A stretch of 63,961 bases of DNA, the filler included, from Malassezia furfur (Eukaryota): NCBI GenBank assembly GCA_052055015.1. It is 5 parts of 5 records of this genome, joined end to end, with 100 filler letters (N's around TTAATTAATTAA, not from the genome) between each part and the next. Parts side by side here need not be neighbours in the genome. Positions count along the whole stretch, not along the records: positions 55,297 to 63,961 come from JBQJIT010000451.1; 4 more parts are not named here. The stretch is one strand, 5' to 3'. Of this stretch, positions 13,747 through 63,961 are shown in pieces. Both the position numbers and the translations under genes were made by a program. The first letter of the stretch is position 1. Every line of letters begins with the position of its first letter. The notes beneath the pieces were generated by a model that worked only from the letters and a program-made list of their open reading frames with translations, had not been told where the DNA came from and did not search any database.

Positions 13747-13846
13747 NNNNNNNNNNNNNNNNNNNNNNNNNNNNNNNNNNNNNNNNNNNNTTAATTAATT
13801 AANNNNNNNNNNNNNNNNNNNNNNNNNNNNNNNNNNNNNNNNNNNN
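13747..13846. other. Artificial contig-joining spacer N44-TTAATTAATTAA-N44
   Basis: The identical 100-nt spacer occurs four times; TTAATTAATTAA has stops in all frames. Confidence 0.98.
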
Positions 13847-27581: not shown

Positions 27582-27681
27582 NNNNNNNNNNNNNNNNNNN
27601 NNNNNNNNNNNNNNNNNNNNNNNNNTTAATTAATTAANNNNNNNNNNNNNNNNNNNNNNNNNNNNNNNNNNNNNNNNNNNN
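27582..27681. other. Artificial contig-joining spacer
   Basis: N44-TTAATTAATTAA-N44. Confidence 0.98.
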
Positions 27682-30600: not shown

Positions 30601-33600
30601 GATATAAAGGCGCAGACGTGGCGCTTCTCAACATCCCCATGTCGCCTGCCGTGACCGATGTGGAGCGGCGCGTTATGACGCTCAAGTTTAGTGATGTGCC
30701 GATGCAGGCGTACGGGAATAAGCACGGGCAATTTTCTGGATTTTTGGCGGATACGACGGCACAAAAGAGTGTGACGTTCCAACTGCATGGGAGTGCTAAC
30801 TCGGTCGCGCGTACTGCCGCTGGAACGGTGACGATCACCGACATTCCGTTCGGTGTGACGACGTCGCTGGATGGTCTGCAGAATCTGAATGCTCGGCCAG
30901 TCGTGACGTCTGATCTGGACGTGAAGCATGGGTACAAGAGCTACCTTCTTATCACACTGAAGGCGTCTCTTTACAATCCCTCTCGCATTACTATTGGCAC
31001 TGGGGACGTTTCTTTTGCGCTAGGGTACACTGGACACCCGATTGGATCGGCTCAAATCTCGAACTTAGTTCTACATCCTGGCGTCAACAATATCTCCACC
31101 AACGTACATTATGCCCCGCATGGCTCAGTAAACGAAAGGGCGGGACAGCAATTGCTGGAGAACTACGTGCAAGGTGTCGTGTCTACAGCCAAGATTTCTG
31201 GGTCTCGGGACACGACACCGATCGCGTCGCTCAAGGAAGCTCTGTCCGGTATTCAGCTCTCGACGCAGATTCCGCCGCTGCACCAGCTGCTGATCATTGA
31301 GGCTAAGCTGGTCATCCCGAAGAACATTGCACAGACGTCTTTGGCGCAGTCGAGCTTCCAGCTGAAGAATCCGTTCACGGCATCAATCAACCTCCTCAAA
31401 GTCAATGCGAAGGCATCATACCAAGGCATCTATCTCGGTGTGATTGATCAGAACCTTTCGCCGCCGATCCGTGCCGATGGTCACACGACAATCACCTCGC
31501 GGACGCTGCCGCTCAAGATGGACCTCGACCCGAAGCACCTGATCCAGTTTGTGGAGAAGGCGGCGGCGAACACCAACACGGACCTTGGTCCGCTGACGGC
31601 GCAATTCAACAAGGTGATGGCGATGTCAAGCACCAAGACCACTGTGCGACCGTATCCGGACCCGAACCCACCGAGCTGGCACTCGGGACGTCAATTTGAT
31701 GTGTTTGGCGCGGTGCTGTCGCTACTGAAGGGCCTCGAGGTGACGTTGGACATTGAGTCGACGGTGAAGCTCGACGACTACGAGACCAAACTCAACTTCA
31801 AGCAGTCACCAGTGCCGACGGACACGGATCGTACTGCGCTGTACCTGATCGGACCCATCGGTGCGCCCATTGTACAAAACCTCGTGGACGGGGCGACGCT
31901 TTCGTTTTCGATGACGAACATCTCGAAGCTGCGGGACGATGGGTTCCATCTGGACTTGCAAGGCCAACTGCTGAATACGGGTCCGTTTGATGCACAAATC
32001 GAGTTCCCCGAGGGCGTCTCGGTTACATGGGAGGGGCAGAGCATCGCTACGATTCAGTTGCCTCCAATCCGAGCGTTTGCATATGAGGGCGTACCGAATT
32101 TGCGGACGACGGGCGAGTTGAAGATCACGAACCAGGGAGGCTTCACCAAGTTTGCGACGTACATCCTGCACAATTCCGACTTTACGTGGACGATCAGCAC
32201 GAATAAACTGCGTGTGCGGGCGCTGAACATTGTGTTTGACGACGTGAAGATCAGCAAGACGCTGCATTTCAAGGCGTTCAATGGGCTGCCCGGTGTGAAT
32301 ATTACGTCGTTTGATATACCTGGGGAGACGTCGAATGCGCTGAAGATTACAACCGGTACGACGATTCCGTCGCCGGCGACGCTCGGCATTGACCTGGAGA
32401 CCGCCAATTTCAAGATCTACTTTGAGAACCAGTATGTGGGCCCTGCGCATTCGACCAACCTCTTTTTGTGCGGGTTGTCTACAACGTCCGCGTTGTTGCA
32501 CGGGTTTATTACGCACAAAAGCGGTAATGCTGAAATCCAAGCGACTGGCAAGCTGTTTTCACAATACTTGCAAGGGAAGAACAGCGATCTAAGTGTCCGG
32601 GGCGACAGTGTGGTGACGCGCGAGAATGGTAACAAACCCGTGGGCTGGTTGTCGAAAGCGTTTAGGTCGCTTACATTGGATGTCGTCTTGCCTGGGCACA
32701 TCTACAAGATTGTGTACTCTGTGACAATTTCCGATCTGTTTGTCACAGTGATGGAGCAGGCGGACACATGGGCACCGCGCACTGGTTCAAATCAGTCTGT
32801 TGCTCTGTACGCAAACCCACTGCATTTTACGTTGACGCCGCTGAAAGCGTCGCTCACTTCGCAGTTGCTCTACAACAATGGCGTGGCTGCACATCTCAAC
32901 ATTCCGTTGCGCACGGTACGGGCCGGTACATCGCACGGCCCTAACGAGCATCGTCCATTGATTATGTCGTGGAAGAGTGAGCGGATGGTCGCCGAAGACC
33001 GTACAGCCTTCACGGCGATGCTTTCCAAAATCCTCGACACTTCCCGAGCGACAATAGGCCTGACGGGCAGCGCGGGGCTGGTGGGCAAGACGGTGATCGG
33101 CAACATTCCGATCGACGGTATCCCCTTTAATGTAAGCACAAGTCTGGCGGGTCTCGATTCGTTCACGGGCAAGACGACACTGAAGCGGCTCGACATTTAC
33201 CACGGGACGCCAGAGTACCTGGACAACAAAGTGCAGCTTGTTTTGACGAATCCAAGCAACATTACAGTGCATACAACCGGCATCTCCTTGCCGAATTTCT
33301 ACAAGAACACGTACATTGGGCGCGCACTGCTGGGCGAGAAAATCATTGCGCCGGGCGACAACCACTTTGATGGCATCGTGCGGTACCAGCCCAACAATCC
33401 CAACGATACCGTCGCACAAGAACTGCTGCAGCGCTATGCGCAGCCACAACAAGGCCATGGGGCCGTGAGCATTCCATACGAGACGCCTGTGGTGATCAAA
33501 GGCCTCGCGAATGCCGACCCGCCGCTCTCGCCATTTGCGTCTCTCACACCGGGCTTGGAACAGCTGTACCTTACTAGCACGCTGCCAGGCATCGCTGTGC

Positions 33601-34451
33601 GTGTGTTGAACCAGATCGACGCATTCTTTGATGTGCTGACGCTGTTTGCCGCGCCAGGCCTGCGCCCGTACATTTATATTGCGCTTACGTTCCGCAATGA
33701 TCTCCCTGTCTCGCAAACGTTCCAGCGTATCCAGTGTGATGCTTTCGAGGCCGGCACGCAGAGCCCGGTGCAGGCATCCTTCACGGAAAACCATGTGACA
33801 AACTGTCGCATTCCGGCCGCGTCCGCGACCAAAGTCAACCCTAAATTCCACAAGTGTGACCGGATTTACCACGTCCTGGGCAACCAAGGCCTGCTCGGGT
33901 CACTTCCTACGATCGGCAAGAACCTCGACGTGCACAACCTCGTGGAGGTCATGCTGGACGACAATGGCTACGTGAATCCTGGCTTCCACTTCAACGAAGA
34001 AGATGTCCTCACCACCTACTCGGTTGCGATCGGAAACACGGTGATCGCCAACATCACCTCGATCGAAGACATGATTGAGGGTATCTTGGGCGCCCTTCCC
34101 AAGCTGACCACCAGCGAGCTGGAAAAGATCACCGACGGGTTTGCCAAGCTCGGCACCGAAGGCATCCTGCAGCTCGCGGAGTCCAAGTGGAAACAGGTGG
34201 TCTGTGCGCTGGACAAGCTCCCTCTCACGCTCATTCACACGGCCGACTGCAGCACTAGCTCGGCGGCAGGTAAGGTCGCTGCTTCCTCCAGAAGCGCCAG
34301 TAATTTGCGCGCCAGCAGCGCATCGTCTGCAAGCACCAAGGTGCGCATCTCGCCCAAGGCGAGCGCCAACTCGTCGCCAGCGTCGAGCGCACATGCTTCT
34401 TCTTCGGCGGCCTCGCAGGCCGCCTCTTCCAATTCGCGCAAGCCCCGGTAA
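27682..34451 (+). CDS. Giant DUF3712 / LEA-2-like repeat protein (Tag1-related), 5' truncated, >2250 aa
   Basis: Repeated beta-rich units NPSPFGMQLG, NPSNVNVQSG, NPSQVGIQLS, NPSRITIGTG, NPSNITV; duplicated GSITNAGPFDAVIRF / GQLLNTGPFDAQIEF; S/A-rich tail. Family assigned from motif recall. Confidence 0.75.
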
Positions 34452-41406: not shown

Positions 41407-41506
41407 NNNNNNNNNNNNNNNNNNNNNNNNNNNNNNNNNNNNNNNNNNNNTTAATTAATTAANNNNNNNNNNNNNNNNNNNNNNNNNNNNNNNNNNNNNN
41501 NNNNNN
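41407..41506. other. Artificial contig-joining spacer
   Basis: N44-TTAATTAATTAA-N44. Confidence 0.98.
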
Positions 41507-47503: not shown

Positions 47504-47674
47504 TCGCGTCCGTTGTACACTAGTCGTATGCCATACTCTCCACATTATTACCTTATGTACTAGCCAAGCGCCCTATACTGCGCCGGGGACCGATGCTCCA
47601 AACACATCGGCTTTTTTTTTGGATTTTGGGATGCGAACAAAAGAAGATTGCATCATAGCCTGCACCGCACTGCT

Positions 47675-49300
47675 TCATTCGGCGTGCGCCGCGTACGCAG
47701 TGTAGCCCTGGGGAATGTACGTCCCGTGGGCGCCGTGGTGGTTGGTGTTCTCGTACTCATCGTGCACCTCAAAGGGGTTGCTGGGCGAGTCACCCTTCGA
47801 GTAGTCGCGGGTGATGGCGTGCTTCTCGTCCGAAAGCTTGTCGTCGTACGCCTCGGCAAGCTCGTCCGTAGCGATCCTGTCGTCGCGGCCCATGTACGAC
47901 ATGTCGAAGCCGTTCGCACGGAGGTATTCGGCAAACTCAGCGTCCTCACGCGCCTGGCAGTCGGCGTCGCGCTCCCGGATGAAAAAGGTCACGAGGATCA
48001 GCGAGACGACGGCGAGCGACGTGCCGAGGTAGAAGGGAGCGGTATAGTACCGGTTGTCGGTGTCATTGCCCTCGGCATCTTCCCAGTGCCCTTGCAGCAC
48101 AGGGAAGGCATAGGTGCCGCTAAAGGCACCGATCTTGCCAATGGCCGCAGCAATGCCGTAGAACTGGCCCTTGCACGCCGTTGCACACGACTTCGAGGCA
48201 AGCAGACCGAGATTGTCGCCGGGACCCATCTCGCCGAACGTCAAAAAGAGGCCATACACCACACAGAACGCGCCGATGTGTCCCTTGAGGTGAGGGAAGA
48301 GACCAGCAAGGATGTAGCCGATGATGATCTGCAGGATGAGGCCTGCCATCATCGTCTTCTTTGGCCCAAGGCGGTCGACAATCACAGCGCCCAGGAACGA
48401 GCCGGGGAGGTAGAAGCAGTTGATCACCGTGCTCCATCCAAAGACTTGAACCAGGTCATTCTTATCGACGAGGCTGTCGGTGATGATCGAAGAGTAGATA
48501 CCGAAGGGGTAGCTGATAAAGTCGTAGATGAACCAAACCAACGAGATCATCGTGAGGCGGAACCAGTACCGCTTGAGAATCAGGCCGTAGGGGATCTTGT
48601 TGAACTTTATGGCGCCCTTCTGGAACGCCTTGGTCTGCTCCATCACCAGACGGAACGGCAGTACAAGCAGGCAAGGCACTACACCAAGACCAAGCACCAG
48701 ACGCCAGATCAGACGCTCGTGGTTCTGACCGCAGATCCACACAAGAAGCACACCCATGAACGCCGACACAACGAAGCCCATGTCAATGGCAAAGTTGGTC
48801 ACGAAAATGAACGGTCCGTGCTGGAAGTTCTTGGGCATTTCCTCCGTCTTCTCGGCAGCGGCCACGGAGCCTGTGGGGTACTCCGCACCGATACCGATAC
48901 CAGTGAAGAAACGCCATGCAATGAGGATATCAACCATTTGGGCAGACGATCCATGGTAGTACGAGCCGGCCGATAGTGCCGTAAACACAAGGACAATCAG
49001 AGTCGCGGTGATCATGCCGGTCTTGCGACCGATCACGTCCGAGAGATAACCGAAGATAAGCATACCAACGACTGTGCCAGCAAACACAATGGAAGACATC
49101 ACCTCAGAGCGGTTCGAGGTTTTGAACACCTCGGGGTATAGCCGCTTCTTGAGCAAGGTGTTGACGACACCCATCGAGTTGTTGGCATAGCCATCGGAGA
49201 AGAGCGCGGCACCGCATGCGATGATGGTGCCAAACTTCCTCCACGTGAACTTGCGATCAATGGTCGTGATGATATTCCCAGGACTTGCGCCGTCAGACAT
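47675..49300 (-). CDS. MFS glycerophosphodiester/phosphate permease, Git1-like (copy 1)
   Basis: ACGAALFSDGY, GYLSDVIGRK, GIGIGAEYPTGSV, WFIYDF, GPGDNLGL, AAAIGKIGAF. Confidence 0.85.
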   Translation of the reverse strand: MSDGASPGNIITTIDRKFTWRKFGTIIACGAALFSDGYANNSMGVVNTLLKKRLYPEVFKTSNRSEVMSSIVFAGTVVGMLIFGYLSDVIGRKTGMITATLIVLVFTALSAGSYYHGSSAQMVDILIAWRFFTGIGIGAEYPTGSVAAAEKTEEMPKNFQHGPFIFVTNFAIDMGFVVSAFMGVLLVWICGQNHERLIWRLVLGLGVVPCLLVLPFRLVMEQTKAFQKGAIKFNKIPYGLILKRYWFRLTMISLVWFIYDFISYPFGIYSSIITDSLVDKNDLVQVFGWSTVINCFYLPGSFLGAVIVDRLGPKKTMMAGLILQIIIGYILAGLFPHLKGHIGAFCVVYGLFLTFGEMGPGDNLGLLASKSCATACKGQFYGIAAAIGKIGAFSGTYAFPVLQGHWEDAEGNDTDNRYYTAPFYLGTSLAVVSLILVTFFIRERDADCQAREDAEFAEYLRANGFDMSYMGRDDRIATDELAEAYDDKLSDEKHAITRDYSKGDSPSNPFEVHDEYENTNHHGAHGTYIPQGYTAYAAHAE

Positions 49301-49844
49301 ATTGGGAAGAGTCGCTAAGGGTAGGAGAGGTAAAATTATCGCGCGCGCTTTTTATGCCACCCCCCGGCGCCCCCGGTAACACCCCCCCTTAGCTGTAAAT
49401 GGCGCTCGTGCCTGCCTTCATGCATTCGTGTGCACGTGCGACCGTTGACGCAGGTCGCGCAGCACTTGTGGAGATTATTAATGCATGTGTATTACAAAAA
49501 AGTTTATTTGGATCTGCGAATCACATGTGCCAAGTCCGGGGATTGGCTACGCGGCTGGCGTCTCCGGCTGTGTCAGAGGAGCCGTGCGATAACCCATCCG
49601 CTGACACAAGCGGCTGGCGCGTCCACCGAGATTCGCTTGGATGAGATCGGGCGACTGCGCCCTCCGGTCGTGTCATCCCTTCCTCAAAGTTAAATGGAGC
49701 ACGTGTCTCTCCATTCATGCGGAGTAGGCTGATCTTTTTTCTATAACGAGCGAATCCTAGGAACGTCCAGCAAAGTTCGCGTCCATGTCAATTTTTTGCG
49801 TATCCCTTGCATAGTATGACCGGTCAGTCCACACAGCCTTTTTT

Positions 49845-51401
49845 TTACTTCATGAGGTCGTGAATAGGGGGGGGAGCGGGGGTCGAGGTCTCGACCCAGC
49901 TCGGCGAATCAAACGCCGCGGTCGGCGAGTCCAGCTTCTTTTCTTCGGCGCCCTCCAGCACGACGTCTTCCGAGTCGACGTCGCTGAGGCGGCCCATTTG
50001 TGCAAGGTCGTAGCCGTGTTCAGCCAGGAAGCGCTTAAAGTCAACATCCTCGTTCAGTTGGCAGTCCGAGTTGCGCTCCTTGATGAACAGTGTGAGCAGG
50101 CCAAGGGACAGGCATGCAAGCGACGCAGCGAGGAAGAACGGCGCCGTGTAGAACAGGTTGCTGGTAGGGTTGCCCTTGGCGTCCTCCCAGTGCTCCTGGA
50201 GGTCAGGGAAGGCATAGGTGCCGGCAAATGCGCCAATTTTGCCGATAGCCGCAGCGATGCCGTAGAATTGGCCCTTGACGCACGTCGCACACGACTTGGA
50301 GGCGAGCAGACCCAGGTTGCTACCGGGGCCCATCTGGCCCATCGACTGGAACAGGCCATAGACCACGACGAACGCGGCGATGTGCTCGCGCAGATGCGAA
50401 AACAGGCCGGCCATGATGAATCCAATGATGATCTGCAGCGCGAGGGCCACCATAAAGGTCCTCTTGGGGCCAATCACGTCCGCAAAGTAGGCGCCCGCGA
50501 CGGCGCCGGGGAGGCCGAGCGCCGTGATCAGCGCGTTCCAGCCAAAGACACGCCAGAGTGCCGCGCCGCTGCCCAGCACGTCCTTGACGATCAGCGAGGA
50601 GAACAGGTTGAAGGGGAAGACGATGAAGTCGTAAATGAACCACACGATCGAAATGATCGACAGGCGGAACCAGTAGAACTGGAGCACGAGGCGGTATGGG
50701 ATCTTCTTGGGCTTGATGGCGCCATTGACGTACAGCCGTGGCTGCTTCAGGACGAAGCGGAACGGAAGGACAAGCAGACAGGGCACAATCACCAACCCGA
50801 GCTGCAGACGCCAGACAAGGCGCAGGTGGTCCGAGGTGCAGATCAGCACGAGGATGAATGGCACCATGTTGGCACACACGGAGCCCAGGCACAACGCAAA
50901 GTTGGTGACCATGATGAATGGACCGTGCTGCCAGCGCTTCGGCAGCTCCTCTGACTGCTCCGCCGCAGCGACCGAGCCAGTGGGGTACTCGGCACCGATC
51001 CCGACACCCGTGAAGAAGCGCCAAGCAGTGAGCATGTCGATCATGCCACCCACGTCGCCTTTGTAGTATGAGCCGGCAGACAGGCCGGAGAACACGATGA
51101 TGATAAGCGTCGCAATGATCATGCCACTCTTGCGGCCGACCGCGTCGGAGAAGTAGCCAAAGAGGAGCATGCCGACGACCGTCCCGACGAACGAAATGGC
51201 CGTCAGAATCTGACTCCGGTGCGTCGTCATAATACCCTTATACAGGTACGACTTGAAAATGGTGTTCACGGGGCCGATCGAGTTGTTCACGTAGCCATCG
51301 GCGAAGAGCGCCGTGCCGCAGGCGGCAATAGAGCCGACTTTTTTCCAGGAAATCGTGCGGTCGTCCATGGCCACCGGGCCAGGGATTACTATGTCTCCCA
51401 T
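49845..51401 (-). CDS. MFS Git1-like permease (tandem copy 2)
   Basis: Same motif set as copy 1 and clearly paralogous; start taken at MGDIVIPG. Confidence 0.85.
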   Translation of the reverse strand: MGDIVIPGPVAMDDRTISWKKVGSIAACGTALFADGYVNNSIGPVNTIFKSYLYKGIMTTHRSQILTAISFVGTVVGMLLFGYFSDAVGRKSGMIIATLIIIVFSGLSAGSYYKGDVGGMIDMLTAWRFFTGVGIGAEYPTGSVAAAEQSEELPKRWQHGPFIMVTNFALCLGSVCANMVPFILVLICTSDHLRLVWRLQLGLVIVPCLLVLPFRFVLKQPRLYVNGAIKPKKIPYRLVLQFYWFRLSIISIVWFIYDFIVFPFNLFSSLIVKDVLGSGAALWRVFGWNALITALGLPGAVAGAYFADVIGPKRTFMVALALQIIIGFIMAGLFSHLREHIAAFVVVYGLFQSMGQMGPGSNLGLLASKSCATCVKGQFYGIAAAIGKIGAFAGTYAFPDLQEHWEDAKGNPTSNLFYTAPFFLAASLACLSLGLLTLFIKERNSDCQLNEDVDFKRFLAEHGYDLAQMGRLSDVDSEDVVLEGAEEKKLDSPTAAFDSPSWVETSTPAPPPIHDLMK

Positions 51402-51744
51402 CTTTGGTGTGTTGGCGATGATAGTGTGCGCTCTGTAGACAAATTCTCTCCATTTGTATCTCCATTTTGCTCGTCCTGCATCCCAGGCCAGTGTGGTCTG
51501 TGTGCGCGCACGTAGACACGTGCGCACCCCTTATGAAATAAGCGCAGCATCCTTATGCACCTGCATCTCCACTTGCATCTGACGCGTGCCAGACAGGCAG
51601 AACCCTGTCAGTCAAGTCATCTGACCTGCCCGATCTATGTCCGATCGACGAAGGGAGCAAGGTCTGGAGATCGGGGGAAATTGGTCCAATTTACGCAGAT
51701 GATCCCCTCTGCGCCAACCTGGTCTCGTGACTGGATCCGTTCGC

Positions 51745-52164
51745 ATGGCCGAGGACTCCGCAAAGTACCAGGGGCGCTGCCTCTGCGGCAGCGTTCAGTT
51801 TACGGTTGAGCAGGCGTTGAAGCAGATTCAGCTTTGCCACTGCAAGCAATGCCAAAGATCCACAGGGACGGCATTTGCGTCCAACATCCCTATCGCGAAA
51901 TCCAACTTTCACATCCAGAGCGGGGCTGATCTTATTGCGTCCTATGAGTCAACCCCCGGGAAACTGCGCAAGTTTTGCAGCCAATGCGGCTCGCCCGTCT
52001 ACAGCGAGCGTGCCACTGCACCAGACGAAATCCGCATACGCGCAGGAACGCTTGACGGCGACCTCGATGCCAGGCCCGTATTCCACTTCTATGTGGAGGA
52101 CATGCCCAATTGGTGCTCCATCAACGACGACCTGCCACAATATCCTCAAGCACGGCCTAACTAG
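51745..52164 (+). CDS. GFA / CENP-V / Mss4-like zinc-binding protein
   Basis: GRCLCGSV, CHCKQCQR, FCSQCGSP, RAGTLD; intronless, 139 aa. Confidence 0.88.
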   Translation: MAEDSAKYQGRCLCGSVQFTVEQALKQIQLCHCKQCQRSTGTAFASNIPIAKSNFHIQSGADLIASYESTPGKLRKFCSQCGSPVYSERATAPDEIRIRAGTLDGDLDARPVFHFYVEDMPNWCSINDDLPQYPQARPN

Positions 52165-52278
52165 CAGCGGGATTCGCACCTATACGAGATCACCATGACG
52201 TATTTACCGGTCTAGCATCATGATACCACGCCCTGCTGAGCCGACCCTTGGCCACTCTAAACCCCTTGTATGCTCGCA

Positions 52279-53118
52279 TTATGCGATGCTGTCGTTCTTT
52301 TCTGGGAACCACTGCTTCCGGCCCAACTCGGTCCAAGGGAAGTAGAGAACAGGGAAAACCAGGAACGAGTTCGTTTCGTTGGCAATGCCGGCATATGCAT
52401 TGTACCATGCCAGAAAAGCCGATAAGATGCCGAAGGCACCACCTGCTCGAACACAGCCCGTATGCGGGGCCTGCCCATCGTTCCGAATGTAGCCGATTGC
52501 CAGCAACAGGAACGTCCAGTCCATCAGGATGAAGAGCAAACAGAAAGACACGGTCGATTTTAGTGTGCAAAGGAGAAGAACGGTTGTAAGGACGAACCAG
52601 CCAAAGAGGAACAACCCGATGGTATCGAGAAGGCCCCGCGTTCCCTCCGTCGCTGTGAGCGTCTCTTCGATACGAAATCCGCCCGGTGTGAGCAGGATTG
52701 CAAACGAGATCCAAAAACCGCCATATGAAGACAATGCAGTCGCACCGAACGTGTTACCGATGGCCATTTCCCACATGCCCGCGATAAGCTGGAGCAATCC
52801 ACCGTAGGCGAAGCCAAGAGGGATAACGATCGAAGAATTGGAGAGCCCAAGAGTACCCAGGTTGATCAACGAAAGTACAAACGTCGTAAGGGCGAAAGCC
52901 GAGAGACCAAGCGGTGCTGGGTTGGCAAATTTCCGTTTTTCGACATCTTTGTACAGACCGGGCTGCATCTCACCACCGAAGGGCGGAAGCATATTTGCTC
53001 GCTCTTCGGGAGAGGTGTGGGCAAGTGGTCCATAGCCAATACGCACCGCGCCAATCGAAGTCTGGTGTTCTTCGCGCGACGTAGAACGCGATAGAGATTG
53101 CTCGCCTGGTGATGTCAT
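52279..53118 (-). CDS. ADY2: GPR1/FUN34/YaaH acetate transporter (Ady2-like)
   Basis: FGG..PGLY, ANPAPLGLSAFALTTF, GNTFGATALSSYGGFW, AWYNA. Confidence 0.9.
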   Translation of the reverse strand: MTSPGEQSLSRSTSREEHQTSIGAVRIGYGPLAHTSPEERANMLPPFGGEMQPGLYKDVEKRKFANPAPLGLSAFALTTFVLSLINLGTLGLSNSSIVIPLGFAYGGLLQLIAGMWEMAIGNTFGATALSSYGGFWISFAILLTPGGFRIEETLTATEGTRGLLDTIGLFLFGWFVLTTVLLLCTLKSTVSFCLLFILMDWTFLLLAIGYIRNDGQAPHTGCVRAGGAFGILSAFLAWYNAYAGIANETNSFLVFPVLYFPWTELGRKQWFPEKNDSIA

Positions 53119-53598
53119 GTCTGCTGTTGCAACTGTACAATGCTCTCGGGTTCCTTGGGAGCGCTCCAAGCCGGGTATCAGTCTATAGCATGAGCTACCC
53201 CCCCTTTTTAAAGTCTGTTAAAACATAATGCGGGAATATTTTACATTCTTGGGATCTGGGGTATGTTAGGGGCACGGATCAGATTTTGTGACGCCCAACC
53301 TCCACAACCCCACGACCTTGTCAGACTGAGCCCATGGCCCGACACAGTCGTGACTAAACAAGCCGTCTTCTGGCGACCAAGACGAGCCAAGAGTACCCCC
53401 TAGTTCCCTCGACGCAGTGCGGGCATACGGATGTCTCGCCCGCTATACACATAATATACGAATAGTCCGCCATGTATAGTCACATCCTGTGTCTACAGTG
53501 CACAAAAACTGTACGCTCTCCCCCGCCCAGCGCCCAGCGCGCGCCGCGCCGCGCCCCTTCTGCATCCCTTTATCACCGTGTGCACGCCCTTTCCTCCC

Positions 53599-53716
53599 AT
53601 CTGCGGCCACAGAACCATGAAAACACCGTATCCCGTCCGATCTGCGAAGTTAAGCATGGTATCGTCTAGTTAGTACTGCGGTGGGGGACCACGTGGGAAT
53701 CCTGGATGCTGCAGTT
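53599..53716 (+). rRNA. 5S rRNA
   Basis: 118 nt, ATCTGCGGCCA..CCCGTCCGATCTGCGAAGTTAAGC..GTTAGTACT..GGGGGACCACGTGGGAATCC..GCTGCAGTT; complementary 5'/3' terminal stem; basidiomycete type. Confidence 0.95.
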
Positions 53717-55196: not shown

Positions 55197-55296
55197 NNNN
55201 NNNNNNNNNNNNNNNNNNNNNNNNNNNNNNNNNNNNNNNNTTAATTAATTAANNNNNNNNNNNNNNNNNNNNNNNNNNNNNNNNNNNNNNNNNNNN
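55197..55296. other. Artificial contig-joining spacer
   Basis: N44-TTAATTAATTAA-N44. Confidence 0.98.
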
Positions 55297-55400: not shown

Positions 55401-58400
55401 ATGAGCGCGCGACTGTGGGGCACCGTGCCCGCCCGCCTAAGTGTCGCACCTGCGGCAGCGCGCACACGCGCCGTGTGCACCACCGCATGCATCCTGCGCC
55501 AGCACCCGGCGCGCGCGCGGCCGCGCTCGCCATCACGCACCAACGACACGCCCAAGGAGCCGCGCCGCAACGCGCAGCGGCCCAACGGGCGGCCCCCGCT
55601 CACCCTCGCCCCCGAAGACCTCGTCCACGAAGACGCAGAAGACGACAAGGTTGCGGAGCAGCTCGACTACAACGTCACCATCGGCGCGTCCGCCTCCAAG
55701 ATGGAGGACATCCAGCCAGGCGACTTTGTCGAGGTGCGCCGCACGGGCCGGACGTTCTCGGGCGTCGTGCTTCCCATCCCGGACGAGCACGACCGCTCGG
55801 GGTCGGGCGCCGGCGCATCGCTCGCGGTCGTCGTCATCTCGGGCGTGCTCGAGCTGGTGCGCTCGACCGACGTCATGCTCCGCTTCCCGGCGTTTGTCGA
55901 CCGGCAGCTCGCTGTGGACGCCGCGCCGCTCAAGCGCGACTACGTCGCAGCGTCCACAGCGCGCGTATCGGCGGCTCCCGTGGCGCTCCCGGACGAGCTC
56001 GCCGTGTCGCACGAGGACATGCTCGCGCTGCGCCAGAGCGCCAGCCGCGACAATTCGTACATGGAGCAGGAGCCGCTCGACTTGCCCCGCTTTGAGAAGC
56101 GCGCGTGGATCTGCCGGAAAATCCGCCAGCTCCAGCGCAAGACGGACAACGAGATCCAAAAGATATACCCGGCGTTCCGTGCCCTGTTCCTCCAGGAACA
56201 GACCGAGGCGCATGTCGACTTTGACTGGACGGGGCACGAACAGGCACCCGAGCACGCCTTCCTGCGCAAGGGGCTCAAGCTCCTACACCGCGGCAGTTTT
56301 ACGACAATCGAGGCGACGCAGCTCCTCACCCAGTACCTCGCCTTCCTGCGCCAAGAAAAGGCCGGCGTCAAGCATCGCTTCCTTGGCGAGACAGTCTTTG
56401 CAATGCACACGCTCTTTATGAACCACCCGAAACAGTTCCTCGTGGACTCGACGACGCACCGGCACAGCCAGATGTTCACCTACCGCTCGCTAAGGGAGCA
56501 GGAGATCCTCTCGCGCGTCTCTGCATGGGTCCGTGCGAGCATGACGGCACAAGGACCGGGGGGTATGGAGGATGCCTCTGTGAAGGACGACGTGGAGCTC
56601 ATGGACGCGGTCGAAATTCTGGACGGTTTCTGTGCGCGCGCCAGGGCGGCCATCGGCTGGCACGAGGCCCAGGCAGAGACGGTAAGCGACCACATCCAAG
56701 CATTGGAGCAGCCCACCACCGCCGAGGGCGACGCGGTTCAGTGGACGGCGACGGACAAGGACATCATCGAGTTCCTCAAGATCAGCGTCGGGAACCGCCG
56801 TGAGCTGCAAGAAGATCCCACGGGCAGCGTTGCCATGTCTATCATCAAACGTGTCGGCGCGCACATTCATCTTAAGCCGATCGTCCACCCCGCGATGGAG
56901 CAAGTGCCGCTCCCCAGCTCCGTCCTATCCACGACGGTGGAGCAGCCGCCGCTGAGTGACACGAGCACAAGTGTGTACTCGGCGGGAACCGATCTTCAGC
57001 ATGCCCTGGTGTTCAACTTTTTGATCCGCCTGGGTGCCTTGACCCCATGGGAGGACCCGAATGTCTTGGACACCTACCTGAGGAACATTGAGGAAAACGC
57101 AAACGAAACCGCTGTGCACGATGCCAGGCACCGTCGTACACTCCAGCTCAATCAGGAGGAGGAGGCTCGGAGGACGCGGTTCGAGAACCTGCCTGTCTAT
57201 GTGATTGACTCGGCGAATGCACACGAGCTGGACGATGGAATTTCAGTGGAGCCTGCAGGCAAAGACACATACTGGATCCATGTTCACATTGCCGACCCCA
57301 CGGCCCGCATTCCACGCAACCACCCCTTGGCGGTCGAGGCGAGGCAAAAGTATTCCAGCATCTACTTCCCGCAGGCCCAGTGGCCGCTGTTCCCCGATTT
57401 CGCAACCTACAATGGAATGAGCTTGAAGGGAAACAGCAGCGAGACAGGCCCAGAGCAGCAAGTCTTGACGTTCAGTGCTCTGGTCACAGACCAGGGCGAA
57501 ATCCGTGACTTCGACGTGCGGCCGTGCGCCGTGCGAAATGTGCGGACGCTGAGCTACGAAGATGTGAACCAGTTCTTCCTGACGAAAAAGGGCCCAAGCA
57601 ACCCCGAGTCGGCTCTGCACCTGGAGTCGACGCAGCGAAACCTGCAGCTGCTTGCGCAACTGGCGTCCAAGCTGAACTCACGAAGGATCACAATCGGCAA
57701 AGGAGTCAATGCGACCAACCAGTCCTCGGAAGTGACCGTGTCGCCCTTGCCGCTTCCTTCGCTGGCCGCGACGCATCCGGATAGCCCAGCATTCTTCACT
57801 GGATTCCCCGACATCCAAATGACCCTGACTGATCCAAGCTCGCCGTTGAAGCCAGGCACCTTTGATGGGCTGCCAGGCGGCATCTCCTCGGAAAACATGG
57901 TCAGTGAGATGATGCTACTGGCCGGTCGCGTCGCTGCAAGCTTTTGCGACGAGCACGAAATTCCTATGCCCTACCGCTGCCAGGATGCACCAGAGGCGGA
58001 CCAAGTGGCCGCCATTGAGCATTTGAAGCACCCCATCACGGGGGCCCTGCCTGTCGTTGAGCTTCAGAAACGGGACATCTTTTTGTCGCCCGCCTATTTC
58101 TCATCTCAGCCTGGGAAGCACTACGGCCTCGGGATTGGCGTGAATGACATCGCTAACACTGATCCGAACGTGCTCAAGGCAGGTGGGTATGTGAGGGTGA
58201 CCAGTCCGCTGCGGCGGTATGCGGATCTGCTGTCGCATTATCAAATGAAGGCTTTCATGTTTGGAAAGAAGACGCTCTCGCGTGGCGATCTGGTGTTCCA
58301 GTTCCCCCGCTTTGAGAGAATGGAGTCATGGGTGAAACAGATTGAACGCGCTTCTCATCGGTACTGGGTGTGGACCTACGTTGACCGACTCCTTGCTAAG

Positions 58401-58691
58401 GCTAAGCAGTATGGACCACCCGAGACAGCCAAGGCTGGCCTGTTCTCGGACATGGATAAACACATCCTCGGAACCATTCCTGCTTTCGTCGGTGTTCCCG
58501 ATGTTCGTTTTACCTACGACACGCTTCAGGCACGTATCCGTGTCAACCTTCAAACTCTCGGAGGGTTCCCAGTGGATTGCATTTGGGACCCCCAGACCCC
58601 TGCACCTCCACGTGGAGAGATCCTTCAAGTGCGAATCCAAGAAACCGTCAGCGCTGGAACCAAGCGCTCAATTATTTGCGAACTAGCATAA
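55401..58691 (+). CDS. DSS1: Mitochondrial RNase II/RNB exoribonuclease (Dss1/Cyt-4-like)
   Basis: YVIDSANAHELDDGIS, HVHIADPT, MVSEMMLLAG, YVRVTSPLRRYADLLSH; R-rich presequence. Confidence 0.85.
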   Translation: MSARLWGTVPARLSVAPAAARTRAVCTTACILRQHPARARPRSPSRTNDTPKEPRRNAQRPNGRPPLTLAPEDLVHEDAEDDKVAEQLDYNVTIGASASKMEDIQPGDFVEVRRTGRTFSGVVLPIPDEHDRSGSGAGASLAVVVISGVLELVRSTDVMLRFPAFVDRQLAVDAAPLKRDYVAASTARVSAAPVALPDELAVSHEDMLALRQSASRDNSYMEQEPLDLPRFEKRAWICRKIRQLQRKTDNEIQKIYPAFRALFLQEQTEAHVDFDWTGHEQAPEHAFLRKGLKLLHRGSFTTIEATQLLTQYLAFLRQEKAGVKHRFLGETVFAMHTLFMNHPKQFLVDSTTHRHSQMFTYRSLREQEILSRVSAWVRASMTAQGPGGMEDASVKDDVELMDAVEILDGFCARARAAIGWHEAQAETVSDHIQALEQPTTAEGDAVQWTATDKDIIEFLKISVGNRRELQEDPTGSVAMSIIKRVGAHIHLKPIVHPAMEQVPLPSSVLSTTVEQPPLSDTSTSVYSAGTDLQHALVFNFLIRLGALTPWEDPNVLDTYLRNIEENANETAVHDARHRRTLQLNQEEEARRTRFENLPVYVIDSANAHELDDGISVEPAGKDTYWIHVHIADPTARIPRNHPLAVEARQKYSSIYFPQAQWPLFPDFATYNGMSLKGNSSETGPEQQVLTFSALVTDQGEIRDFDVRPCAVRNVRTLSYEDVNQFFLTKKGPSNPESALHLESTQRNLQLLAQLASKLNSRRITIGKGVNATNQSSEVTVSPLPLPSLAATHPDSPAFFTGFPDIQMTLTDPSSPLKPGTFDGLPGGISSENMVSEMMLLAGRVAASFCDEHEIPMPYRCQDAPEADQVAAIEHLKHPITGALPVVELQKRDIFLSPAYFSSQPGKHYGLGIGVNDIANTDPNVLKAGGYVRVTSPLRRYADLLSHYQMKAFMFGKKTLSRGDLVFQFPRFERMESWVKQIERASHRYWVWTYVDRLLAKAKQYGPPETAKAGLFSDMDKHILGTIPAFVGVPDVRFTYDTLQARIRVNLQTLGGFPVDCIWDPQTPAPPRGEILQVRIQETVSAGTKRSIICELA

Positions 58692-59081
58692 ATATAAATG
58701 AATTAGATATTTACATTACGTTCAATAATAAACACAATAGATAATATTGAGTTCTTATAAGTTAAAAATATTGTATAAAGTATTTAAATTATAATTGACC
58801 AAAATAATATATATTAACAAATAGGAATATATTATAAACGTTAATATTTATATGAATCAATATTGTCATAATACATAATAATCATGTTTATTAAATTTGT
58901 TTTCTGTTTTATATAATTTATAAGTTACTTAAAAATGATTATTGTTTAACTGAATGTGTTTTAACATATAATAACGTTTATTGTTATTACTTTAATCATG
59001 TTTGCTATCATGTTTAAAATTTTATAAAATAAATATGTTTTATTTTGCCTCATCTAAATGATTCCTTCATTTATTTCTTTG
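58692..59081. other. Extremely AT-rich intergenic island, candidate centromere core
   Basis: Hand count of about 63 G+C in 390 nt (~16% GC) against roughly 60-70% in most of the window; lies between convergent genes; flanking codons also lose GC. Confidence 0.75.
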
Positions 59082-60359
59082 TTACATATTTTGGAAATAA
59101 ATACTTGCTGCAATATCCGTATTCCCATCGCTTGCAGTTAATAATTGAATTGCAAGATTTCGGTCGATGCCCAGGTTGGTTAGGGTGGTGATGGTCTCTT
59201 CCGACCACGTGCTGGGCTTGGCAGCTTGGGAGGGAGGTGGCTTGGCCGGCGTAGTAGAGGGTGCAGCGGGTTGACGCAAGGTGCTCCCCCCACTGGTGGA
59301 TGCTTGCTCGGCACTCTTGGACTCGCTGTTGGATTCGTGCTCCGGATCCGTGAGATGGTTCTTGGGTAGCTCATGTTCGGGCAGGAATGGAATCACCTTT
59401 TCATTGATAACGAGGGCATTCTTCTGAAGATCAATGTTGGCTTGGTAGCGTTTGAGCATGTCCAGTCCAAAGAGCATGTCGACACTGGATCCCTGCGTAG
59501 GTTAGTATCGCGCGCCCAGGCAACCAAAGTACATACCTCGAGTACCGTAAAGGCACAGGGCAGGAAGAGGTCGCCGCCCAGTTGGATCTGGGTGCTGTGC
59601 ACGCGTCCCAGGATTTTGGCCGTGCCTACACCCTTTGCCACGCCCGAGAAGCGCTTGTCAAGCAGACGCATGATCCCGCAGCGCTCGGCACACTCCGGGC
59701 TGATGATGGTGGCCTGTGCGCCGCTGTCAACGAACGCCTTCACGGGGTGGTCGTTGACCTTGAGATCGACATAGAGCATGGTGACGTTGCCGAACGCCTC
59801 TGGTGTGTACTCCATGGCGTGTTCCATATTCTCGGCAATCTGTTCCTGCCGAATGGCCTCTTCGATGCGTTTTTGCGCCTCGACGTCGAAAGGGTCCGAG
59901 TTGGCGAGCTGCTGCAGCGACTGCACCTGGCTGAGCTGCTCGCGCTGGTGTGCGAGGGTGCGTGCAAAGGCCTCTTGGGACTCCATGGCGGCTTCCAGCA
60001 AGGCGGGGTTGCTCTGAGGTCAGACAAGTCGGACGTACCGCGCGCAGTTGGTTCTGGAGCGCGACCGAGCCGCGGATTTGGGCGCGCACGGCCTCGGCCA
60101 TGGCGGCATCCGTGTCCGGTGCGCTGGGCGGGGCGTGCTGGCGCGTGTCTTGGAGGAGGATCAGGTCGCCGTCCTGCACGCCGTACGCCGAGAGCGATTT
60201 CTGCGCGTCGGTGAGGGGCGCATTTTGGAAGAGGAGCTGCTGGTGCGCCGCAGGCACCTCGGTGTCGGCCTCGACGACCGCCTTGAAGTTTTCGACCTCG
60301 ATCGACGCGTCTACGTCGAACGCAAATGTGTTCTGCTGTGCGTCTACGACGGTGAGCAT
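59082..60359 (-). CDS. DDI1: Ddi1 (UBL, retroviral-like aspartyl protease, UBA); introns 60038-60014 (25), 59536-59493 (44)
   Basis: [48 protein letters not shown]-terminal UBA. Confidence 0.93.
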
Positions 60360-60458
60360 CGTGGGAGTAGCCGAACGCGTCGCGTCGAGCTGACGCGGCC
60401 TGTGCGTCAGCCTCCACTGGACGAGCGGCGGCCGCACGTGGCGTGGCGAGGAGCGTCC

Positions 60459-63365
60459 ATGAGCCGTTCGCGCGAAGCACGTCGCGCCGCTGCGCGCAGT
60501 GCGGCGGCGCAGTATCTGGCGCCGACGCCGTTCCTGGGCTATGGTGACGAGTCGGTGCGCCGCCGTCCGAATGGTGAAGACGACGACGCGCCGCGTCTGA
60601 GCGACCGGCACTGGGAGGACGAGGAAGAGGACGAGGCCGACGTCGACCGCGACTGGTACCTGCGCGACGACGACGGAGGCGTGGCCGGCGATGCCGACCA
60701 TAATCCGTTTGCGCAGTACGAGGATATGCCCGGCGAAGTGTCGCGCACGATCGCGAAGCGGCACGAGCGCATCACGGCGCGCCAGGCGGCGTACCGCGCG
60801 GACGCCGACGCCTGGGAGACGAACCGGATGCAGACGGGCGGCGTGGGCGGCCCGCGTGTGCTGGACGACGACCCCGACGAGCACGGGGACGACCGTGTGC
60901 ACCTGATGGTGCACAACCTGCGCCCCCCCTTTTTGGATGGCAAGACGGTGTATACCAAGCAGATTGCGCCGGTCAATCCGGTGCGCGACCCGACGGCGGA
61001 CATGGCCGTGTTTGCGCTGAAAGGCAGCCGGCTCGTCAAGGAGCACCGCGAGCGGGCCGAGCGGGCAAAGGCGGCGGGCCGCGTTGCGTCGCTCAAAGGC
61101 ACGCAGCTCGGCAAGATTATGGGCGTGAAGGAGGACGAGGAGGAGGGTGCGCAGAGCCAGATCGACCCCGCGGAGGACGAGGGGAAGGGCGACTCGCGCT
61201 ATGCGACGCACCTCGCGAAGAAGCAGCGCGGCCTGTCCAAGTTTAGCCGGAGCAAGTCGCTGCGCGAGCAGCGGCAGTACCTGCCCGCGTTTGCGAGCCG
61301 GGACGATCTGATGCGCACCATCCGGGAGAACCAGGTGGTGGTGGTGATTGGCGAGACGGGCAGCGGCAAGACGACGCAGCTGTGCCAGTTCCTGCACGAG
61401 GACGGCTACACCGAGTATGGGCTGATTGGGTGTACGCAGCCGCGTCGTGTCGCGGCGATGAGCGTCGCGAAGCGGGTGAGCGAGGAGATGGAGTGTGAGC
61501 TCGGCAGCACGGTCGGCTACTCGATCCGGTTCGAGGACTGCACGAGCAAGGATACCAAGATCAAGTACATGACCGACGGTGTGATGCTGCGCGAGTCGCT
61601 GACCGAGCGCGACCTGGACCGCTACTCGGCGATCATCCTCGACGAGGCGCACGAGCGGTCGCTGAACACGGACGTGCTGATGGGCCTGCTGAAGAAAGTG
61701 CTGGCGCGGCGGCGCGACCTGAAGCTGATTGTGACGTCGGCCACGATGAACGCCGAGGGCTTTTCGCGGTTCTTTGGCGCGGCGCCCATCTTTACGATCC
61801 CCGGGCGCACGTTCCCCGTGGATGTGCTGTTCAGCAAGACGCCGTGTGAGGACTATGTGGACAGCACTGTGCGGCAGATCCTCTCGATCCACCTCGGCCA
61901 GGGCGCCGGCGGCGACATTCTCGCGTTCATGACCGGGCAGGAGGACATTGAGGTGACGTGCGAGGTGGCCATGGAGCGGCTGAAGCAGATCGACGATGCG
62001 CCGCCGCTGCTCATGCTGCCGATCTACTCGCAGATGCCTGCGGATTTGCAGGCGCGCATCTTTTTGCCGTCCGAGCACGGCGAGCGCAAGTGCATTGTCG
62101 CGACCAACATTGCCGAGACGTCGCTGACCGTCGATGGCATCATGTTTGTCGTGGACGCGGGGTACAGCAAGCTGAAGCTGTACAACCCGCGCGTGGGTAT
62201 GGACTCGCTGCAGATCACGCCGATCAGCCAGGCGAATGCGTCGCAGCGCTCCGGGCGCGCCGGGCGCACCGGGAGCGGCACGGCGTACCGCCTGTACACG
62301 GAGAATGCGTTCCACCACGAGATGTTCCCCGCGACGATCCCCGAGATCCAGCGGACGAATCTGGCGAACACGGTGCTGCTGCTCAAGTCGCTCGGGGTGA
62401 AGGACCTGCTCGACTTTGACTTTATGGACCCGCCGCCGCAGGACAACATCCTGAACAGCATGTACCAGCTGTGGGTGCTTGGCGCGCTGGACAACCTCGG
62501 GAACCTGACGCCGCTCGGGAAGCGCATGAGCGAGTTCCCCATGGAGCCGAGTCTCGCCAAGATCCTCATCATGAGCGTCGAGTACGGGTGCTCCGAGGAG
62601 TTGCTCACGATCGTGAGCATGCTGAGTGTGCCGACCGTCTTTTACCGCCCCAAGGAGCGCCAGGAGGAGAGCGACGCGGCGCGCGAGAAGTTCTACGTGG
62701 CCGAGAGCGACCACCTGACGCTGCTGCACGTGTACGCGCAGTGGAAGAACCACGGGTACAAGGACGCGTGGTGCAACCAGCACTTTTTGCACGGCAAGCT
62801 GCTGCGCAAGGCGCGCGAAGTGCGTGCGCAGCTCACCGACATCATGCAGTCGCAGCGCCTGCCGCTCCAGTCGTGCGGCACCGACTGGGACATTGTGCGC
62901 AAGTGCATCACCTCGGGCTACTTCCACCAGGCCGCGCGCGTGAAGGGCATCGGCGAGTACGTGCACTGCCGCACGGGCATCCCGATGAACCTGCACCCCA
63001 CGAGCGCGCTGTACGGCCTGGGCTACACGCCCGACTATGTCGTGTACCACGAGCTGACGCTCACCTCGAAGGAGTACATGGGCACGGTCACCGCTGTCGA
63101 CCCGTACTGGCTCGCGGAGCTCGGCGGGGCGTTCTACTCGATCCGCGAGCGCCATGCGCTCGGCACGACCGGGCGCCGCGGGCGCGACACGCAGCTGGGG
63201 CATGCCGTCGAGCTCGAGGCGCAGTTTGAGCGCGACCGGCAGCGGGCCGGGGAGGAGGAGAACGCGAAGAAGCGCAAGACGAATGCGCACCCCGGCGGCA
63301 TGCGGCACGGCATTGCGGTGCCGGGCCTCGCGCCGAAGCGCGGCCGCCGCGTAGGCTTCCGGTAG
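60459..63365 (+). CDS. PRP16: Pre-mRNA splicing DEAH helicase Prp16/DHX38
   Basis: WETNRM, LKPPFLDG-like [43 protein letters not shown]. Confidence 0.92.
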
Positions 63366-63408
63366 ATAGGTAAGGTGGAGGCAATCGGGCCATTTTCTTC
63401 GGACCGGC

Positions 63409-63961
63409 ATGTCGGCGTGGGGAGCGCACACGAGCGGGCCGTTGCAGCCCGTGCTGGAGCTGCCCGAGCGCGTGGGCGCGGTGCAGTGCAGCGCCGCGCC
63501 GCTCGCCAAGACGCTCGTGGCCGTCGGTAGGTCGTGGCGGCGCTGACGCAGCGACGGAGCACAGCGTGTTTGTGTATACGACGCACGTCGACGGCACGCG
63601 CCTCGCGCTGCACCGCGTCGCGTCGTTCCTCGTCGGCGCGCGCGCAGCAGCGCTGGCGTTCAGCCCCGGCGCACAGTATGGCCAGGAGGACGGCGTGGTC
63701 CGCATCGAGTGCGTCGCGCGTACGGCTGACACAGACTCCTCGCGGCTGTGGGGGACGAGCTGCGCCTGCTCACGGCGACGCACGACACCGCGTCGAGCGC
63801 CGTGCTCGGCACGGCCGGCGCGCGCATCGGCGACCTTGCGTGGTGCGCCGCGCCGGGGTACGAGCAGTACGTCGCGGTGGGCTGCGACGACCACGCCGTG
63901 CAGCTGTGGGACCTCGAGCCGGCGCACGGCGGGCGCGCGGCCGCCGCGCGCGTGCTGCGTG
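63409..63961 (+). CDS. WD40-repeat protein (possibly Nup37-like), 3' truncated; introns 63527-63551 (25), 63709-63734 (26)
   Basis: The spliced frame stays open and gives IGDLAW..YVAVGCDDHAVQLWDL; both introns have GT donors, CTGAC branch points and CAG acceptors. Confidence 0.6.

Follow-up and report, generated by a model that had tools for sequence, protein, structure and literature searches.

A 390-bp AT-rich gap between two convergent genes of Malassezia furfur is very probably the core of centromere 1

The point centromeres of budding yeast are about 125 bp long and are set genetically by two flanking protein-binding motifs, CDEI and CDEIII. Their CDEII element in Saccharomyces cerevisiae is very short, extremely AT-rich and non-repetitive, and it carries the centromeric nucleosome. 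Similar to CDEII, the centromere cores of Malassezia are very short, extremely AT-rich and non-repetitive, and they are also found in a compact yeast genome. Different from S. cerevisiae, however, the Malassezia cores possess no exclusive sequence, form part of a 3–5-kb region bound by the kinetochore and are considered regional and epigenetic. In M. sympodialis, Mtw1 ChIP-seq placed the centromeres in 3–5-kb regions centred on an AT-rich intergenic core of <1 kb (Sankaranarayanan et al., eLife 2020;9:e53944, PMC7025860). The short regional centromeres of Malassezia are recognized by the GC minimum of the chromosome, one trough per chromosome, binding of CENP-A/Mtw1 and depletion of histone H3, and also by enrichment of a 12-bp AT-rich motif (PMC7025860). 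In M. sympodialis and M. furfur, likewise, the lowest-GC region of each chromosome corresponded to a validated centromere, and one discrete low-GC region per chromosome was reported for all Malassezia assemblies examined (PNAS 2023;120:e2305094120, PMC10410736). The sequence-only reading that was followed up here had relied on this architecture, short regional centromeres with sub-kb AT-rich cores, and in this respect it agrees with the description in PMC7025860.

The centromeres of the skin yeast M. furfur are the closest described systems. In a genome of 64.9% GC, there are seven cores, one GC trough per chromosome, whose lengths range from 168 to 721 bp and whose GC contents range from 15.4 to 27% (PMC7025860, Table 2). 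CENP-A-3xFLAG ChIP-qPCR of strain CBS14141 showed enrichment at 7/7 predicted centromeres (PMC7025860). The core of centromere 1, MfCEN1, was reported to be 268 bp with 15.7% GC, at positions 2,850,135–2,850,402 of CBS14141 Chr1, and Supplementary file 1 of the same paper gives primers “homologous to the GC troughs”, including that of M. furfur Chr1 (MfCEN1) (PMC7025860). Moreover, MfCEN1 is listed as fully syntenic with centromeres of eight other species altogether, which are MslCEN1, MsyCEN5, MgCEN5, MreCEN2, MveCEN4 and MjaCEN7 as well as CEN6 of M. dermatis and of M. nana (PMC7025860, Table 3).

The window, which is the whole stretch of 63,961 nucleotides analyzed in this study, comes from M. 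furfur assembly GCA_052055015.1. It joins contigs of 13746, 13735, 13725, 13690 and at least 8665 bp, arranged by size, and the four linkers between them (N44-TTAATTAATTAA-N44) are all-frame stop spacers. Given these linkers, the window is a pseudo-molecule of five contigs, and adjacency across a linker is biologically meaningless. The GC contents of the contigs were 61–66%. The AT-rich island is on the fifth contig (55297–63961), 3.4 kb from the left end of this contig. In a 400-bp composition profile of the 64-kb window, a single deep trough was found at 58.4–59.2 kb, the GC content elsewhere was 50–75%, and the secondary dips of the profile were runs of N. The island had been described from a hand count as about 390 bp with about 16% GC, and the measured values were 390 bp and 16.4% GC. 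With 250-bp windows, the size used in the Malassezia papers, the lowest value in the island was 0.144 GC (z = −7.6 relative to the other windows). The other windows of the five contigs (n = 61,650) had a mean of 0.634, an SD of 0.064 and a minimum of 0.448 GC, so that 0/61,650 were below 0.40 and 0/61,650 were below 44.8%; this comparison set is 63.5 kb from five unrelated contigs, not one chromosome. Thus, the usual intergenic or terminator DNA of this genome is not AT-rich. The earlier description of the island as by far the lowest in the 64 kb therefore held for the window itself, but the window consists of five contigs and is not a stretch of one chromosome. The positions of all features are given in Table 1.

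Two other regions of the window also had reduced GC contents. A second block of about 54–60% GC in the 400-bp profile was at 47600–53600 on the fourth contig. In addition, one giant repeat-domain ORF of 2245 codons (27714–34451, plus strand), with five DUF3712 stretches and an LEA_2 match (PF12505, E = 6.6e-100), had a GC content of ~50–56% vs. 65–72% in the remainder of its contig.

Table 1. Features of the window and of two metagenomic relatives. Positions count along the window unless a metagenomic locus is named.
Feature	Position	Strand	Remarks
Probable centromere core (CEN1 of M. furfur)	58692..59081		entire 390-bp stop-to-stop gap, 16.4% GC; identity from MfCEN1 primers
Maximal AT-rich segment	58688..59103		416 bp, 16.1% GC; extends a few codons into both coding ends
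Primer MF1 F1 (MfCEN1) site	58983..59009	-	27/27, 0 mismatches
Primer MF1 R1 (MfCEN1) site	58797..58823	+	26/27; mismatch at the 3'-terminal base of the primer
Left pericentric gene, RNB-domain exoribonuclease II, Dss1-like	55401..58691	+	1096 aa, single exon
Right pericentric gene DDI1 (UBL, retropepsin-like Asp protease, UBA)	59082..60359	-	402 aa
DDI1 exons	60359-60039, 60013-59537, 59492-59082	-	joined frame open for 402 codons
PRP16, DEAH-box splicing helicase	60459..63365	+	968 aa; divergent from DDI1
Approximate pericentric zone of depressed GC3	56100..60400		~2.5 kb left and ~1.3 kb right of the core
Linkers	13747-13846, 27582-27681, 41407-41506, 55197-55296		four, between contigs
AT island of locus L002	2453-2610		158 bp, 11% GC; predicted centromere
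AT island of locus L004	11096-11353		258 bp, 16% GC; predicted centromere

Both primers of the published MfCEN1 assay matched within the island, MF1 F1 at 27/27 bases and MF1 R1 at 26/27. Their sites are convergent and delimit a 213-bp amplicon, and 0/100 shuffles contained MF1 primer matches. Thus, the island is very probably the locus that was validated by experiment as MfCEN1. The comparison with CBS14141 comprises only these 54 primer bases, of which 53 were identical. Similar to MfCEN1 of CBS14141, the island is intergenic, sub-kb and repeat-free, and its GC content is 16.4% compared with 15.7%. Different from MfCEN1 of CBS14141, the gap measures 390 bp and the AT-rich segment 416 bp instead of the published 268 bp, one of the 54 primer bases is changed, and strain and assembly differ. 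The difference in length (390–416 vs. 268 bp) may come from a stricter definition in the paper or from a strain-level length polymorphism of CEN1. The strain of this assembly would be other than, or slightly different from, CBS14141. Given that the MF1 R1 mismatch is at the 3'-terminal base of the primer (position 58823 of the window), it could weaken CEN1 ChIP-qPCR in this strain, and users of the published primer should be aware that the efficiency of CEN1 qPCR could fall.

With a probability of about 0.92, the island is the AT-rich core of M. furfur centromere 1, a short regional centromere. We infer that it also functions as a centromere in this strain, the CENP-A binding itself being taken from the paper on CBS14141. 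A Malassezia short regional centromere core is what the sequence-only reading had proposed for this island, and the primer matches bear this proposal out. The feature is already known, as MfCEN1 was mapped and validated experimentally in 2020 (eLife 2020;9:e53944). Because its prediction, CENP-A ChIP validation and genus-wide synteny were all published at that time, the biological gain from finding it again is small. The case does confirm, however, that reading the raw sequence alone can be enough to recognize a true centromere in a fungus with a compact genome.

The sequence-only reading had also allowed for a recently inactivated centromere, in which case the AT island would be a relic and the kinetochore would assemble elsewhere in this strain. 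Two ancestral centromeres have indeed become inactive in M. furfur (PMC7025860, Table 3 and section 13), and the length of the island departs from the published 268 bp. The two inactivated centromeres, however, diverged and lost their AT-richness according to the same section (PMC7025860), whereas the island has retained a GC content of about 16%. Moreover, the primer sites of the CENP-A-bound CEN1 are nearly unchanged in the island, and the gradient of third-position GC described below is intact on both sides of it. An inactive or recently inactivated centromere is thus not favored and is very unlikely.

The gene to the left of the core encodes a protein with an RNB domain (E = 1.4e-56), whose matches to solved structures include “Exoribonuclease II, mitochondrial” (E = 1.3e-17). 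Both matches are consistent with a Dss1-type mitochondrial exoribonuclease, which is a plausible assignment and falls short of proof. The name DSS1 that had been given to this gene is therefore supported by its domain and its structure match but is itself only plausible. Sixteen relatives of the RNB protein were found at E ≤ 1e-20, of which one cluster was 99% identical. The identities with named relatives were 63% for M. psittaci, 62% for M. yamatoensis, 51% for M. vespertilionis, 43% for M. pachydermatis and 33% for Ustilago. The best named relatives were those of clade-A Malassezia, and no named M. furfur protein was among the 16. These relatives show that the DNA belongs to the genus Malassezia, clade A. 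The assignment to M. furfur is supported by the primer matches and by the contig GC contents of 61–66%, compared with the 64.9% published for its genome. Moreover, the RNB protein diverges by >35% between sibling species, so that nearly perfect non-coding 27-mers next to its gene argue for the species from which the primers were derived.

The gene to the right of the core is on the opposite strand. Its product contains a DDI1-type aspartyl protease domain (PF09668, E = 1.4e-40) and a UBA-like domain at the C-terminal end. The two introns are 25 and 44 nt long, and from reading of the sequence both have GT..AG borders. The name DDI1 was well chosen, given the Asp_protease and UBA domains and the open three-exon model of 402 aa. 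PRP16 was also named correctly, as chains of PRP16/DHX38 scored 1228 bits against 812 bits for DHX8/PRP22. The spacer between the divergent DDI1 and PRP16 genes is 99 bp with 73.7% GC. The TAA stop codon of the RNB gene ends at 58691, and that of DDI1 is at 59082–59084 on the minus strand. Thus, 58692–59081 is exactly the 390-bp stop-to-stop gap, and the island does fill the whole gap between two tail-to-tail genes, as had been stated.

Given that the gap is bounded by two stop codons and is only 390 bp long, the RNB and DDI1 mRNAs must end within or across the core. This raises the possibility that the two convergent genes merely share an AT-rich 3' UTR and terminator region here, or that the island is a replication origin, in either case without a kinetochore role. 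In fungi, 3'-end formation is commonly directed by AT-rich elements, which is a point for such a terminator. None of the other 61,650 windows in these five gene-dense contigs approaches the island in AT-richness, however, and the locus is very probably the one at which CENP-A was validated in CBS14141. Moreover, a role in termination is compatible with centromere function and is not an alternative to it. An AT-rich terminator or origin without kinetochore function is therefore highly improbable.

The contents of the island are those of a non-coding sequence. In six frames, the longest stop-free stretch was 40 aa under both the standard code (table 1) and the mold-mitochondrial code (table 4). 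Searches of the island revealed no Rfam match at E ≤ 1, no tRNA and no tandem repeat. The short repeats that were found, a single direct pair of 17 nt and six inverted pairs, imperfect and ≤21 nt long, are of the kind expected in AT-rich DNA. The island therefore is, as claimed before, non-coding and without transposon features. It thus combines an AT-rich intergenic core of <1 kb (390 bp, 16.4% GC) with the absence of direct or inverted repeat structure and transposons, and Malassezia centromeres are likewise described as being without repeat structure (eLife 2020;9:e53944, PMC7025860). A hidden RNA gene or mitochondrial gene was considered for the island and rejected on the absence of Rfam matches, tRNAs and a long frame under table 4. 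A cruciform or other secondary structure of the core was also rejected. The DNA minimum free energy of the core was −36.7 kcal/mol compared with −32.9 ± 3.6 for shuffles (z = −1.05), and 16/100 shuffles folded at least as well as the core.

Conservation of the locus was assessed with RNB orthologs. They were aligned and metagenome contigs were scanned, which yielded 47 loci. Four of them (L001–L004) were examined, while L005–L047, which had at most 38% identity over partial matches and were mostly from soil- or plant-associated metagenome contigs, were left out. The RNB proteins of the four loci were 42–44% identical to that of the window, and their best identities with named RNB clusters were 53–67%. 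The contigs of L001 and L003 stop at the RNB 3' end, so that they are uninformative on the downstream order. In the 2/2 loci that reach past RNB (L002 and L004), the order RNB(+), AT island, DDI1(−) and PRP16(+) was kept. The stop-to-stop gap was about 148 and 228 bp in these two diverged relatives vs. 390 bp here.

Similar to the syntenic Malassezia centromeres, the island is an AT-rich core of <1 kb in a GC trough flanked by active genes. Different from them, its sequence is unrelated to those of the relatives' cores, which are 148–258 bp compared with 390 bp here. Sequence sharing between the cores of the window and L002 was considered and rejected, as shuffles reached the observed sharing in 173, 92 and 119 of 300 cases for 8-, 10- and 12-mers, respectively. 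The 12-mer excess between the window and L004 was marginal (13/300 shuffles) and held only against mononucleotide shuffles, a lenient control. The primers for MgCEN5, MsyCEN5 and MslCEN1 had 0 hits at ≤2 mismatches in the window and L001–L004. Among the primers searched in these sequences, only the MF1 primers hit, solely in the window. Thus, L001–L004 belong to other lineages and have no link to a centromere that was mapped in a named species, and the AT islands of L002 and L004 count only as predicted centromeres. The 158-bp length that the AT segment of L002 shares with the published MgCEN5 is taken to be a coincidence, as the MgCEN5 primers had no hits.

The gene order of the locus is nevertheless that of mapped centromeres, as the primers tie it to MfCEN1 and both informative relatives agree. 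Synteny of DSS1, DDI1 and PRP16 with mapped Malassezia centromeres had been suggested as a check on the centromere reading, and the outcome is positive, because MfCEN1 is given as fully syntenic in Table 3 of PMC7025860 and the gene order with an AT island recurs in 2/2 relatives. Judged from these sequences, the position of the putative centromere is conserved and its core sequence is not, as expected for centromeres. The metagenomic Malassezia relatives thus provide independent evidence for a conserved position, not sequence, of centromere 1.

The convergent arrangement of RNB and DDI1 was kept in 3/3 lineages seen. It is conceivable, though rather doubtful, that convergent transcription into the core helps to maintain CENP-A chromatin, that the core serves as a bidirectional terminator as well and that the gene pairing has been selected. 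The orientation of flanking ORFs across centromeres is described as inconsistent (PMC7025860), which argues against a general requirement for a convergent pair.

Metagenomic contigs L001 (10450–10592) and L003 (10900–11016) end just where the start of the AT core would be expected. The terminal bases of both resemble what we take to be sequencing-library adapter. AT cores of this kind seem to interrupt short-read assemblies.

The flanking genes of the window also carry a trace of the core. The GC content at third codon positions (GC3) of the RNB gene dropped steadily from 0.93 at 55.8 kb to 0.44 across its final 16 codons. On the other side, GC3 of DDI1 climbed from 0.53 at the edge of the core to about 0.8, and that of PRP16 climbed from 0.75 to 0.95. 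Meanwhile, the GC content at codon positions 1 and 2 was flat near 0.5 throughout the flanking genes. The zone of depressed GC3 (56.1–60.4 kb) is of the same order as the 3–5-kb kinetochore-bound region of M. sympodialis. Suppressed recombination has been linked to low GC content (cited within PMC7025860). The gradient probably results from long-standing local suppression of both recombination and GC-biased gene conversion, and/or from AT-biased mutation. Such a fall of GC3, from 0.93 to 0.44 within about 3 kb, is a clear mark of an altered local regime of mutation or gene conversion around a core of 390 bp.

A gradient on the kilobase scale speaks against recent insertion or an assembly chimera. 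The island could in principle be a NUMT, or a chimera in which the assembly placed AT-rich organellar reads between two nuclear genes, as AT-richness is typical of fungal mtDNA and the assembly is a fragmented one, with contigs of about 13.7 kb. The primers that match in the island, however, derive from the GC trough of nuclear Chr1 in an independent assembly at chromosome level. In addition, the island lacks tRNAs, Rfam matches and any frame of >40 aa under table 4, its AT-richness grades into the synonymous sites of the flanking nuclear genes over kilobases, and in two diverged relatives an AT island of unrelated sequence occupies the corresponding gap between the genes. An organellar origin of the island is thus scarcely credible.

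For the island as the core of centromere 1, the following mechanism is proposed. CENP-A would replace histone H3 on the sub-kb AT-rich intergenic core, which would make the locus an epigenetically specified short regional centromere. The kinetochore would also cover, though more weakly, a few kb of the flanking active genes, those for the RNB exoribonuclease and DDI1. The position would be old and conserved genus-wide, and the core sequence would turn over freely. Finally, the GC content at synonymous sites of the flanking genes would have been eroded by the processes named above for the GC3 gradient.

Two minor observations were made on the coding sequences to the right of the core. The first intron of DDI1 (60014–60038, minus strand; GTACGT...CAG) is merely 25 nt long in a frame-preserving model that comes from sequence reading only, and it is very short even among compact yeast genomes. 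Moreover, a 1227-codon open frame (59727–63410, minus strand) is antisense to PRP16. This frame is most likely no gene but a by-product of the sense-strand GC3 of ~0.9, as stop triplets, being A/T-rich, become scarce on the other strand. The real coding sequence in it is limited to its last ~100 codons, which correspond to the UBL exon of DDI1.
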